Source: an uncultured Halothiobacillus sp.
GTDB taxonomy: Bacteria > Pseudomonadota > Gammaproteobacteria > Halothiobacillales > Halothiobacillaceae
Direction: 5' to 3'
Assembly (NCBI GenBank): GCA_964402435.1
Contig: CAYOCG010000007.1
Span: 543 to 64,542 of the forward strand
DNA: 64,000 bases
Below, in pieces: positions 4,415 to 56,760 of the stretch (position 1 is the first letter of the stretch; the number at the start of each line of letters is the position of its first letter). The notes under the pieces are model-generated. The model was not told the origin of the DNA and searched no databases. It worked only from the letters and a program-made list of their open reading frames with translations. A program made the position numbers and the translations under genes.

Positions 4415-5032
4415 ATGCACCACCTCAGAAGATCACTGCGCCTCATCCCGTTTTTCGCTGCGTTGTTACTCACTGCCTGCGCCACCTCTGGCTACAACGT
4501 GTGGGTGGACAGCAGTCCGCAACTTGGCGGCACCGCTTATCAAACCTTTGCCTTCGCCCAGCCGCTGGGCACCGATGGCGACGGCTACCAGAGCATCCTC
4601 TCCCAGCGTCTGATGGCGGCCACCCAGCGCGCCTTGGAGGCGCGCGGCCTGCGCCGCGTGGACAACCAGCCGCAGTTGATGGTGAATTTTCACATCCTCT
4701 GGGTCGAGCGCAGTTATGTCACGCCCTACGTTTACCCCATGGTTGGCTACGGCTGGGGACGCGGCTATTACGGCAGCCGCTTCGGTTTTTACAGCAGTTG
4801 GCCGTTTTATCCTTCCTACGGTGCTGTCAACACCACGCTTGAAGGCACACTGCGCATCGACATCAACGATGAGCGCACACGGCAGCGTGTTTGGGTGGCG
4901 TTGATCGACGACTTTGCCTCCAGCCCGGACACGATCTATCCACCGGGCAGCGTGGAAAACGCGATCAACGCCGCGTTTGAGAAATTCCCGCTGCCCGTGA
5001 AACCCTCGCCTCAACCGCCCGCGGCGAGGTAA
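4415..5032 (+). CDS. DUF4136-like lipoprotein
   Basis: Start taken at MHHLRRSLRLIPFFAALLLTAC (lipobox LLTAC). The C-terminal EGTLRIDINDERTRQRVWVA resembles DUF4136. Confidence 0.6.
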   Translation: MHHLRRSLRLIPFFAALLLTACATSGYNVWVDSSPQLGGTAYQTFAFAQPLGTDGDGYQSILSQRLMAATQRALEARGLRRVDNQPQLMVNFHILWVERSYVTPYVYPMVGYGWGRGYYGSRFGFYSSWPFYPSYGAVNTTLEGTLRIDINDERTRQRVWVALIDDFASSPDTIYPPGSVENAINAAFEKFPLPVKPSPQPPAAR

Positions 5033-55285: not shown

Positions 55286-55295
55286 GGGGGGGGGG
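55286..55295 (+). repeat. G10 homopolymeric tract in the murI-roadblock intergenic region
   Basis: Counted directly: ...GTATC GGGGGGGGGG TAACATCC... It ends 47 nt upstream of the ATG at 55343. Confidence 0.9.
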
Positions 55296-55342
55296 TAACA
55301 TCCTCGCCCGAACCAAACAACCCAGCAATTAAGGAGGACATC

Positions 55343-55705
55343 ATGCGCGCCGACATGCTCACATCCATTCTGGCCGAACTCAATGGCTCATCCGCCGATA
55401 TCGAAGCTTCTGCCGTTGTTTCCACCGATGGCTTGATGATGGCGGCATTACTGCCCTCCGGCATGGACGAAGACCGCGTCGGCGCCATGAGCGCCGCCCT
55501 GCTCTCCCTCGGCGATCGCACCGCCAAGGAACTGGCGCGCGGCACACTGGAACAGGTACTCATCAAAGGCGACAAGGGCTACATCCTCATGACCCACGCC
55601 GGTGAAGATGCCGTACTGACCGTGCTCGCCAAACCGCAAGCCAAGCTCGGCCTGATCTTCCTTGATGTCAAACGCGCTGCAGAATCCGTGGGCAAGGTGG
55701 TTTGA
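55343..55705 (+). CDS. Roadblock/LC7 (MglB-like) domain protein
   Basis: 120 aa: LAELNGSSADIEASAVVSTDGLMMAALLPSGMDEDRVGAMSAALLSLGDRTAKEL...LTVLAKPQAKLGLIFLDVKRAAESV, typical of Robl_LC7. AAGGAGG RBS at 55331..55337. Confidence 0.8.
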   Translation: MRADMLTSILAELNGSSADIEASAVVSTDGLMMAALLPSGMDEDRVGAMSAALLSLGDRTAKELARGTLEQVLIKGDKGYILMTHAGEDAVLTVLAKPQAKLGLIFLDVKRAAESVGKVV

Positions 55706-55715
55706 GGCTCTCTCA

Positions 55716-56246
55716 ATGCAATTGGATTCCAACGATAAGAACCTTACCACCTTCGGCCATATCGGCGGATTGTGTAACGAAGGGCAGGCTGTGCTCGCTG
55801 AACTCGCGCCCAAACTTGAGCCCCACCTGCCGGCGATCACCGATGAGTTCTACCGCCTGCTGGCCGAAGATGCGCAAACCGCACCTTATCTTGAGGGGCG
55901 TATCGACGCGCTCAAAGCCACCCACTTGCACTGGATGAAGGACATTCCCAGCGGGAATTACGACGATACCTTCATCAGCCGGCAAGAAAAGATTGGTGAG
56001 GTGCACGTCAAGGTGCGCGTTCCGCCGCATTTCGTTGCAGCAAGCATGAGCCATTTACGTGCTGCATTGCCGCTGCTCATTCAACGCGTCGAGGCAGACA
56101 GCACACGCGCCGCGCATGCGATCAAAAGCCTGATGCAGGTATTGGATTTATGCCATTACCTGATCGACCGCAAATACAGTGAAACGCTGATGGATAACTT
56201 GGGCATCAGTCCCGCGCTGCTCAATCGCTTGCAGACCTTGCGTTAA
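55716..56246 (+). CDS. stand-alone protoglobin / globin-coupled-sensor-type haem domain protein
   Basis: 176 aa. The ITDEFYRLLAEDAQTAPYLEG...LKATHLHWMKD...YDDTFISRQEKIGEVHVKVRVPPHFV pattern matches the sensor-globin fold, including a candidate proximal His in IGEVH. No output domain. Confidence 0.7.
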   Translation: MQLDSNDKNLTTFGHIGGLCNEGQAVLAELAPKLEPHLPAITDEFYRLLAEDAQTAPYLEGRIDALKATHLHWMKDIPSGNYDDTFISRQEKIGEVHVKVRVPPHFVAASMSHLRAALPLLIQRVEADSTRAAHAIKSLMQVLDLCHYLIDRKYSETLMDNLGISPALLNRLQTLR

Positions 56247-56322
56247 GTCGTCTTTGTTACACCTACCAACTTGCCGGTACAAGTAGCGCCGCGAATTGAT
56301 CACATATAATTGAGGTGAAGTT

Positions 56323-56760
56323 ATGAATCCCCTTTCCACCCCTGAAATCCTACAAGCGTGGGATAGCATCAACCGCACCTTTGCGGTCATTGTGTTCGAC
56401 AAAACCGGGCACATTCTTTACGTCAACGACATTTTCCTTACAGCCATGCAGTACACGCTCGAAGAGGCTGTTGGCCAACATCACCGTATTTTTTGCCTCC
56501 CCGAATACGCAGAGTCCGAGGAGTATCGTGAGTTCTGGCGCGTACTGGGCGATGGCAAGCCTAACAAGGGGACGTTTGTACGCCTGAAAAAAGATGGCAA
56601 CCAAATCACGCTTTACGCCGAGTATTCGCCGATTTTCAATGAGCACGGCGAGGTGATAAAGGTAGTCAAAGTTGCGCAGAACATTTCCAAGGTCGTCAAC
56701 GACATTCATGAGCAACTTGGGATTAGTGAAAAGTTATTGCTGCGCTTGCTCAAATTCTAA
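56323..56760 (+). CDS. stand-alone PAS domain protein (MCP-N-terminal PAS type)
   Basis: 145 aa: FAVIVFDKTGHILYVNDIFLTAMQYTLEEAVGQHHRIFCLPEYAESEEYREFWRVLGDGKPNKGTFVRLKKDGNQITLYAEYSPIFNEHGEVIKVVKVAQNIS. About 50% G+C in two hand-counted 100-nt samples. Confidence 0.75.
   Translation: MNPLSTPEILQAWDSINRTFAVIVFDKTGHILYVNDIFLTAMQYTLEEAVGQHHRIFCLPEYAESEEYREFWRVLGDGKPNKGTFVRLKKDGNQITLYAEYSPIFNEHGEVIKVVKVAQNISKVVNDIHEQLGISEKLLLRLLKF

Follow-up and report, generated by a model that had tools for sequence, protein, structure and literature searches.

Stand-alone globin and PAS genes beside a Roadblock gene: a possible satellite input module of a Group 3 MglA/MglB system

We analyzed a 64-kb stretch of DNA from an uncultured Halothiobacillus sp. 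(the window), in which three small genes on the same strand (55343-56760) encode a Roadblock/LC7 protein, a sensor globin, and a PAS protein. We lean, without great confidence, toward viewing this trio as the detached satellite of a Group 3 MglA/MglB Roadblock-GTPase system that is encoded elsewhere, to which the trio would contribute a gas or redox input. On this account, the trio appears to have no output because it is a satellite of a known, uncharacterized G-protein system. The genes and their ribosome-binding sites are as follows.

55332-55337, + strand: AGGAGG ribosome-binding site of the Roadblock gene, read from the sequence
55343-55705, + strand: coding sequence of the Roadblock/LC7 (MglB-like) protein, 120 amino acids (aa), with a Pfam Robl_LC7 match
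55704-55707, + strand: GAGG ribosome-binding site of the globin gene, overlapping the Roadblock stop and 8 nucleotides (nt) before the globin ATG
55716-56246, + strand: coding sequence of the stand-alone S-family (protoglobin type) sensor globin, 176 aa, from Pfam Protoglobin and a structural model
56312-56317, + strand: GAGGTG ribosome-binding site of the PAS gene, inside the 76-nt spacer, read from the sequence
56323-56760, + strand: coding sequence of the stand-alone flavin-type PAS protein, 145 aa, from Pfam PAS_3/PAS_9

The three genes and their domains

All three open reading frames (ORFs) are intact, as read from the sequence, and the domains named in the original prediction (Robl_LC7, Protoglobin, and PAS_3/PAS_9) all match above Pfam's curated cut-offs. 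The proposed co-operonic layout also holds: the globin ATG lies 10 nt past the Roadblock stop and has its GAGG, a 76-nt spacer (44.7% G+C) separates the globin and PAS genes, and the PAS stop overlaps a convergent SDR/epimerase ORF (whose stop is at 56757) by 4 nt. Because the GAGG overlaps the Roadblock stop at a spacing of 8 nt from the globin start, the arrangement suggests that the Roadblock and globin genes are translationally coupled. A promoter/terminator consensus scan found no promoter and only chance-level terminators, and the 76-nt spacer contains no convincing one.

The Roadblock protein has a single Robl_LC7 domain (residues 16-96; E = 1.6e-18; 66.6 bits versus a cut-off of 23) in about 120 aa, which places it among the MglB-like Roadblock/LC7 proteins. 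It is an orphan MglB, as no MglA-family GTPase gene lies within four genes (the criterion of PMC4316618).

The globin also has a strong domain match (Protoglobin, E = 3.5e-22, 79.5 bits versus a cut-off of 25). The predicted local distance difference test (pLDDT) score of its AlphaFold2 (AF2) model is 90.9, and the best matches in the PDB are the sensor globins GsGCS, AfGcHK, and HemAT (2w31, 5ohe, and 1or6), with template modeling scores of 0.75-0.77 when normalized by the query. Profile comparison to GsGCS (2w31) gives 3.5e-32. Two positions are invariant in the family.

55851-55853, + strand: codon for Tyr46, the distal B10 tyrosine of the FY motif, which aligns with Tyr45 of AfGcHK and the FY of GsGCS
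56004-56006, + strand: codon for His97, the predicted proximal (F8) heme ligand, which aligns with His93 of GsGCS and the equivalent histidine of AfGcHK

Because these invariant residues fall on the F8 histidine and the B10 tyrosine, the globin likely binds heme, to judge from the alignment. By sequence and fold, then, it has the S-family globin domain, His F8, and Tyr B10 of globin-coupled sensors such as HemAT, AfGcHK, DosC, and GsGCS. However, it lacks their fused C-terminal transmitter: its globin fold extends to about residue 162 of 176, the last 18 residues form a tail, and the candidate partner (Roadblock) comes from a separate gene. As an S-family globin with one domain, it is a sensor single-domain globin (SSDgb), which is already a named class (PMC7475203, PMC4648194). 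Its 71 homologues contain only the Protoglobin domain and have 129-195 aa (175-186 aa in most of them, and 175-195 aa if full length); they are found in Halothiobacillaceae, Acidithiobacillus, Acidocella, Wohlfahrtiimonas, and other hosts. Wohlfahrtiimonas chitiniclastica has two tandem protoglobins of this family beside its his operon (L098, 7162-8543; L numbers denote loci).

The PAS protein matches PAS_3 (4.7e-12) and PAS_9 (3.4e-11), and its AF2 model has a pLDDT of 89.7. The nearest solved structures are the FAD-PAS domain of MmoS (3ewk, 3.2e-16), Aer (8dik), the FAD-PAS domain of NifL (2gj3), and short LOV proteins. These are the closest known proteins by both sequence and structure, and they share with the window's protein a PAS core that is flanked by N-terminal and C-terminal helices. 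Judging from these similarities, the protein most likely belongs to the flavin-binding PAS clade, and flavin is its candidate cofactor. Like short LOV proteins, it has no effector domain. In contrast to them, it has GQHHRIFC where LOV proteins have the photoactive-cysteine motif GXNCRFLQ, and its C-terminal helix carries a Roadblock-linked motif that is described below. It also differs from MCP or Aer-type proteins, in which PAS lies at the N terminus of a HAMP-MCP protein: it is a 145-aa stand-alone protein, and so is its whole family (13 homologues, all stand-alone, 145-162 aa). A metagenome scan with the PAS profile found just 3 loci.

MCP, GGDEF, and kinase domains are frequent fusion partners of sensor globins and of this type of PAS domain, and JGI labels one of the PAS homologues a "methyl-accepting chemotaxis protein," so we considered the proposal, also made in the original prediction, that the locus is what remains of a decayed globin-coupled or PAS-MCP chemoreceptor. 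We find this hardly credible. The ORFs are intact, the 71 globin homologues and 13 PAS homologues are single-domain proteins with conserved ends, the gene order recurs in independent samples, the AF2 models are confident, and His97 and Tyr46 are conserved. The downstream DNA is the convergent SDR gene rather than MCP or GGDEF sequence, and we rejected a pseudogene remnant.

No partner for the trio was found locally, as had been predicted. The genes around it are murI (Asp_Glu_race), an epimerase/SDR gene, proQ, ampG, and rluD, and we found no GTPase, MCP, GGDEF, or kinase partner at the locus. Just one Roadblock gene is present in the 64 kb.

Stand-alone sensors beside a nearly invariant Roadblock protein

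A Roadblock profile scan of a genome collection found 453 relatives, and the best 80 loci were examined. In 69 of these 80 loci, a stand-alone PAS or globin gene lies beside the Roadblock gene. Acidithiobacillus, Halothiobacillaceae, and Acidocella share the order Roadblock, then this type of globin, and metagenome-assembled genomes (MAGs) of Halothiobacillaceae contain the Roadblock-globin pair alone. The window's whole arrangement recurs in independent samples (L014, L016, and L104); in L014 and L016, which are 96% identical to the window, the neighbors are again murI, SDR, and ProQ. The PAS protein with the C-terminal motif adjoins Roadblock in L008/L009, L023, L024, L101, and L102, as well as in the window's lineage.

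Two loci have other arrangements. First, Thiofaba sp. EF100 (L024, 4546-6900) encodes PAS, Roadblock, a globin of a fourth subtype, and another Roadblock, with the motif in both sensors; these are the components of the window's trio in another order and with two copies of Roadblock. Second, Acidithiobacillus ferrivorans SS3 (CP002985; L001, 3222-8537) has two Roadblock-globin pairs, with a P-II-like gene and a gene for a Protoglobin-GGDEF-EAL protein of 885 aa between them.

Roadblock is also found fused to sensors. We searched protein representatives, clustered at 50% identity, and inspected the 150 best Roadblock relatives, of which 58 exceed 200 aa. These longer proteins include P0318 and P0331, in which Roadblock is fused to Protoglobin and the proximal histidine is retained, and three others that join Roadblock to PAS (two proteins) or to Fer2 (one protein). 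Acidocella (L006/L007) has a Roadblock-globin pair together with a convergent gene for a Roadblock-Protoglobin fusion. In that fusion (L006, 8602-9483, - strand; also in L007), the proximal histidine is lost, with PAFKNLA in place of GETHVRV, and the protein may be a heme-free paralogue. Together, the adjacency in 69 of 80 loci and the natural fusions support the idea, raised in the original prediction, that the sensors signal by protein contact with Roadblock, although the contacts themselves are inferred.

A covalent link between a heme globin and Roadblock has been described before. HGbRL of Methylacidiphilum infernorum is an M-type globin with a C-terminal Roadblock domain; it was called unique to its genus and was not assigned a function, but ligand-driven movement of the globin was proposed to be relayed to Roadblock (PMC4476040). 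HGbRL is a single polypeptide with the globin N-terminal, it belongs to the M family (flavohemoglobin-like), and it forms a site-swapped dimer. In contrast, the window has separate genes, with Roadblock preceding an S-family globin, the pairing extends across several proteobacterial classes, and there is a PAS partner, so the window's globin is not of the HGbRL type. HGbRL is the only precedent that we found: no paper in the literature searched joins "roadblock" with "protoglobin."

The Roadblock protein itself is under unusual constraint. The window's protein is 92-98% identical to those encoded by Roadblock genes in Halothiobacillaceae, which include copies from GTPase operons (see below), and it is 97-98% identical to the main-operon copies of other genomes. 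Roadblock paralogues within a single genome are 93-97% identical as proteins but only 77-80% identical as DNA, and 50-61% of the positions with identical residues use different codons. Since the proteins are nearly identical while their codons have diverged, these appear to be old duplicates under strong purifying selection; we rejected gene conversion as the source of the similarity because the DNA is just 77-80% alike. We did not find residues in Roadblock that are specific to a class of partner: the few substitutions track the lineage of the genome and not the type of partner, which fits a common surface on the hub. Our reading of the sequences is that all copies of Roadblock have one set of partners to fit, and that a hub gene of its own accompanies each sensor gene.

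The globin and PAS proteins have unrelated folds, yet both end with the motif LG[IM]S..L[LI].RL.

56190-56243, + strand: C-terminal tail of the globin (MDNLGISPALLNRLQTLR), 18 residues, a turn and a short helix after helix H
56707-56757, + strand: C-terminal tail of the PAS protein (HEQLGISEKLLLRLLKF), with the motif of the globin tail

The end of the globin reads ...LMDNLGISPALLNRLQTLR, and its G163 and L168 do not vary among 29 homologues. In the PAS protein, L132, G133, L138, R141, and L142 are invariant across 14 homologues. In both proteins, AF2 predicts two helices, the second of them short, joined by a G-[IM]-S turn, with lower confidence than in the core: in the globin, helix H ends at residue 162, the GIS turn follows, and the last helix is at 166-174 (pLDDT 76-83); in the PAS protein, the helices are at 121-132 and 136-144. 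The tail is present, with variations, in all four subtypes of globin that adjoin Roadblock. It is missing from all three Roadblock-globin fusions that we looked at (L006, P0318, and P0331), and the Aer-type PAS protein of the main GTPase operon also lacks the motif. Tlr1989 of Thermosynechococcus elongatus, a sensor globin that has been crystallized (PDB 8h17), aligns through the tail (...LKETGWTQALFQRLIAT). The presence of the tail in a cyanobacterial protein implies that it is older than the proteobacterial module.

Helical peptides are known to dock on Roadblock dimers, as the dynein intermediate chain does with LC7 and LAMTOR1 does with LAMTOR2/3. We propose that the tail is a putative non-covalent tether to Roadblock. 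Another view is that the tails are minimal DNA-binding or dimerization elements, so that the sensors are one-component regulators or dimers and Roadblock is just a co-regulated neighbor. The tail does fit the classic helix-turn-helix (HTH) pattern (a hydrophobic residue, G, [IVM], S, three residues, L), AF2 predicts a helix-turn-helix in both proteins, short LOV proteins dimerize by their C-terminal helices, and Tlr1989 has the same tail. But an autonomous HTH domain would have to be larger than a pair of helices of 8-12 residues, the tail vanishes exactly when globin and Roadblock are covalently fused, and adjacency to Roadblock is the dominant context of these sensors. We therefore consider this view as a whole improbable.

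A GTPase operon as the candidate partner

Clustering of the genes in the 80 loci identified a recurrent operon. Its first genes encode a TPR-like protein, "c1" (about 400-430 aa), a small GTPase of 180 aa, and a Roadblock-like protein of 215 aa; these are followed by optional genes for cytoplasmic PBP-like and 140-aa proteins and then by Roadblock, an Aer-type PAS protein, and a PBP-like protein. The order c1, GTPase, Roadblock-like, Roadblock is found in 33 of the 80 loci. The GTPase matches ATP_bind_1 (4.9e-11) as well as Ras and Roc in Pfam, and it has the motifs GPVGAGKT, GTPGQ, TRMD, and DAR.

A similar set of genes was defined bioinformatically in beta- and gamma-Proteobacteria by Wuichet & Sogaard-Andersen in 2014. 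Their Group 3 MglA systems, which are predicted to control transcription, consist of a protein that is receiver-like at its N terminus and winged helix-turn-helix (wHTH)-like at its C terminus, MglA with a deviant G4 motif and DAR as G5, and one or two MglB proteins (PMC4316618). The recurrent operon fits this description. The window's Roadblock belongs to the same MglB-like clade, and its near-identical paralogues lie in operons with genes for receiver/wHTH-like, MglA-like, and second MglB-like proteins. In contrast to those systems, the window has only an orphan MglB, and the paper mentions no globin, PAS protein, satellite genes, or tail. Because the Group 3 operon is absent from the window and present in 33 related loci, the trio is better described as a satellite than as a member system in itself.

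The operon has further components. It includes (L017, 105-6764, as a representative of the 33 loci) one or two cytoplasmic Phosphonate-bd/PBP-like proteins, in which inspection by eye revealed no obvious signal peptide, and a 140-146-aa protein with a cysteine-containing C terminus, whose single weak match to V4R (E = 0.017) we do not treat as an assignment. The PBP-like and 140-146-aa proteins may be additional ligand sensors of the same system.

Three types of evidence lead us to think that the trio's partner GTPase is most likely encoded in trans. First, relatives of the sensor are embedded in the operon: in L099, a globin that is 63% identical to the window's directly follows c1, GTPase, Roadblock-like, and Roadblock, and in L100, L049, and L066, another type of globin with the tail is inside the GTPase operon. 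Second, satellites and operons co-occur: all 12 satellite loci (Roadblock-globin, globin-Roadblock, or PAS-Roadblock) are in 8 assemblies that also contain the main operon. Third, the satellite and operon copies of Roadblock are nearly identical. Thus, the original prediction was correct that Roadblock's usual GTPase partner is absent from the locus, but the partner is not absent from the biology, as related genomes have the operon with a near-identical Roadblock. We infer that the window's own genome also encodes the main operon. The survey of gene neighborhoods that had been suggested thus found both a recurring sensor-Roadblock pairing and a recurring GTPase operon.

The proposed mechanism is as follows. 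Roadblock would serve as an MglB-like hub whose sequence hardly changes. It would be co-expressed, and probably translationally coupled, with a heme-binding single-domain globin that senses O2, NO, CO, or redox state, and a flavin-type PAS protein in the same operon would respond to redox. Each sensor would bind the Roadblock dimer non-covalently, probably via the shared helix-turn-helix tail. Changes in the sensors, driven by ligand or redox state, would then modify the effect of Roadblock on three partners supplied in trans: the MglA-like GTPase, the longer Roadblock-like protein, and the receiver/wHTH-like protein. Sensor-bound Roadblock might modulate activity as a GTPase-activating protein (GAP) or guanine nucleotide exchange factor (GEF), and the end effect would be altered transcription. 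Because the hosts are sulfur and iron oxidizers at oxic-anoxic interfaces, the system may govern oxygen- or redox-dependent expression.

Several observations weigh against a GTPase in trans. A tblastn search of the whole 64-kb window gave no matches to the GTPase or to the other operon proteins. In Amphritea, Pontibacterium, and Motiliproteus, about 30 loci contain c1, Roadblock-like, Roadblock, and PAS without a GTPase within 5 kb, which shows that the GTPase is not always nearby. There is also no GTPase within 8 kb of the Roadblock-globin pairs of A. ferrivorans and Acidocella; our search with the GTPase profile, which had at least 8,000 matches, is uninformative for these genera, as neither Acidithiobacillus nor Acidocella is among the matches listed. 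The layout in A. ferrivorans suggests a possible link of the module to cyclic di-GMP (c-di-GMP) signaling. No Roadblock gene lies within 8 kb of the Wohlfahrtiimonas globins (L098), and the PAS lineage of L011/L012 has no adjacent Roadblock gene. Finally, the count of satellites that co-occur with main operons could be inflated by errors in MAG binning, and the tail could equally serve for dimerization.

Given these observations, a serious rival is that the trio is self-contained and independent of any GTPase, with Roadblock acting as an adaptor directly to c-di-GMP enzymes or to the receiver/wHTH-like protein. The roughly 30 GTPase-less operons, which are of the Oceanospirillales type, and the pairs of A. 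ferrivorans, which border Protoglobin-GGDEF-EAL and P-II genes, are what make it serious. In addition, a PAS homologue with the tail lies beside a PAS-GGDEF gene in L011, and 328 of 749 MglB homologues are orphans, none of which has been characterized (PMC4316618). On the other hand, in Halothiobacillaceae, the lineage of the window, no assembly has a satellite without also having a GTPase operon, globins of the family sit directly in GTPase operons, and the satellite and operon Roadblocks are practically one protein. On balance, we consider the GTPase-independent module unlikely.

Two variants of the operon stand out. The Oceanospirillales version (L053-L095, also found in Marinobacterium) encodes a short TPR-like protein, c1, Roadblock-like, Roadblock, an Aer-type PAS protein, and PBP, and its Roadblock is about 80% identical to the window's. 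L099 (1036-8534) is a minimal system with just c1, GTPase, Roadblock-like, Roadblock, and globin. Its contig, from an assembly labeled Pseudomonas aeruginosa, also encodes KfrA and an integrase, and the system may travel on mobile elements.

A satellite of a Roadblock-GTPase system would resemble two other types of signaling systems. In the conservons of actinobacteria (AGPS; CvnA-D with CvnE/CvnF), Roadblock and a small GTPase are likewise combined with stand-alone accessory sensors (GAF and P450) that work by protein contact. However, conservons have a histidine kinase (CvnA) and a DUF742 protein, and their accessory proteins act on the kinase (PMC13343842). The window contains only the Roadblock component of a conservon, so it does not belong to that group; we saw no kinase or DUF742 protein in the window or in the related proteobacterial operons, and the sensors are paired with Roadblock itself. 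In stressosomes, several paralogous sensors (RsbR paralogues), some of which are heme globins, share one hub. Here the hub would be Roadblock instead of STAS/RsbS-RsbT, and there is no covalent fusion between the sensors and the hub domain.

We found no earlier description of the coupling of globin or PAS proteins to an MglB-like hub, of the satellite organization, of the shared tail, or of the extreme conservation of the hub. The locus joins two questions, that of the signal input to bacterial Ras-like GTPase/Roadblock systems and that of the signaling targets of SSDgb proteins: it predicts that heme and flavin sensors regulate Roadblock directly, and it identifies the tail as a candidate interface. 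The proteins are small and soluble (120, 176, and 145 aa), which suits biochemical and structural work.

The satellites with this type of globin share another feature, a poly-G tract upstream of Roadblock.

55286-55301, + strand: G10 (55286-55295) followed by TAACAT (-10-like), a candidate phase-variable promoter spacer

The G10 tract, which is 47 nt ahead of the Roadblock ATG, is the only run of G or C of at least 9 nt in the window. Similar tracts followed by TAACAT lie upstream of Roadblock in L014 and L016 (G9, at about 1033), L043 (G11, at 4935), and L027 (G8 and G26, at 152-186), and L048 (4927) has G8 and an assembly gap exactly at the tract. Across these satellites, TAACAT is invariant, genomic contexts differ, and the tract is 56-90 nt before the Roadblock start. 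About 90 other upstream regions of Roadblock contain no poly-G, so the tract is limited to satellites of this globin type. From its sequence, it looks like a slippage-prone promoter spacer, although part of the variation in length could be due to assembly errors.

A broader scheme would combine these features: a nearly invariant hub, onto which interchangeable globins (at least four subtypes) and PAS proteins dock by a peptide of about 16 residues, competing for a single Ras-like GTPase/transcription module, with a poly-G switch in the globin satellite. We offer this plug-in principle tentatively, as something that we would not expect to hold in full. If it were true, a ligand-gated GAP/GEF input would for the first time be described for a bacterial small GTPase, and the large class of orphan MglB proteins would gain a function.

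Base composition and a C8 run in the PAS gene

The PAS gene had been described as compositionally foreign, based on hand-counted samples, but this was not borne out. The G+C content is 48.6% for the PAS gene, 55.0% for the globin gene, and 65.1% for proQ. The earlier figures for PAS (about 50%) and proQ (66%) were thus close, while that for the globin (62%) was too high. G+C content at third codon positions (GC3) is 62% in the PAS gene versus 65-78% in its neighbors. In other genomes, the G+C content of PAS homologues is 5-7 points below that of their own locus, with host-like GC3. Because the homologues are also low in G+C with host-like GC3, the low G+C content of the PAS gene is mostly due to its amino acid composition. 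It is weak evidence for a foreign origin, and given GC3 and the composition of the homologues, we rejected a recent horizontal transfer of this gene.

At codons 5-7, the window's PAS gene encodes LSTP and has no C8 run. L014, L015, and L016 have a C8 run at these codons (Pro-Pro-Pro; 2082-2089 in L014), which is a possible frameshift-prone site.

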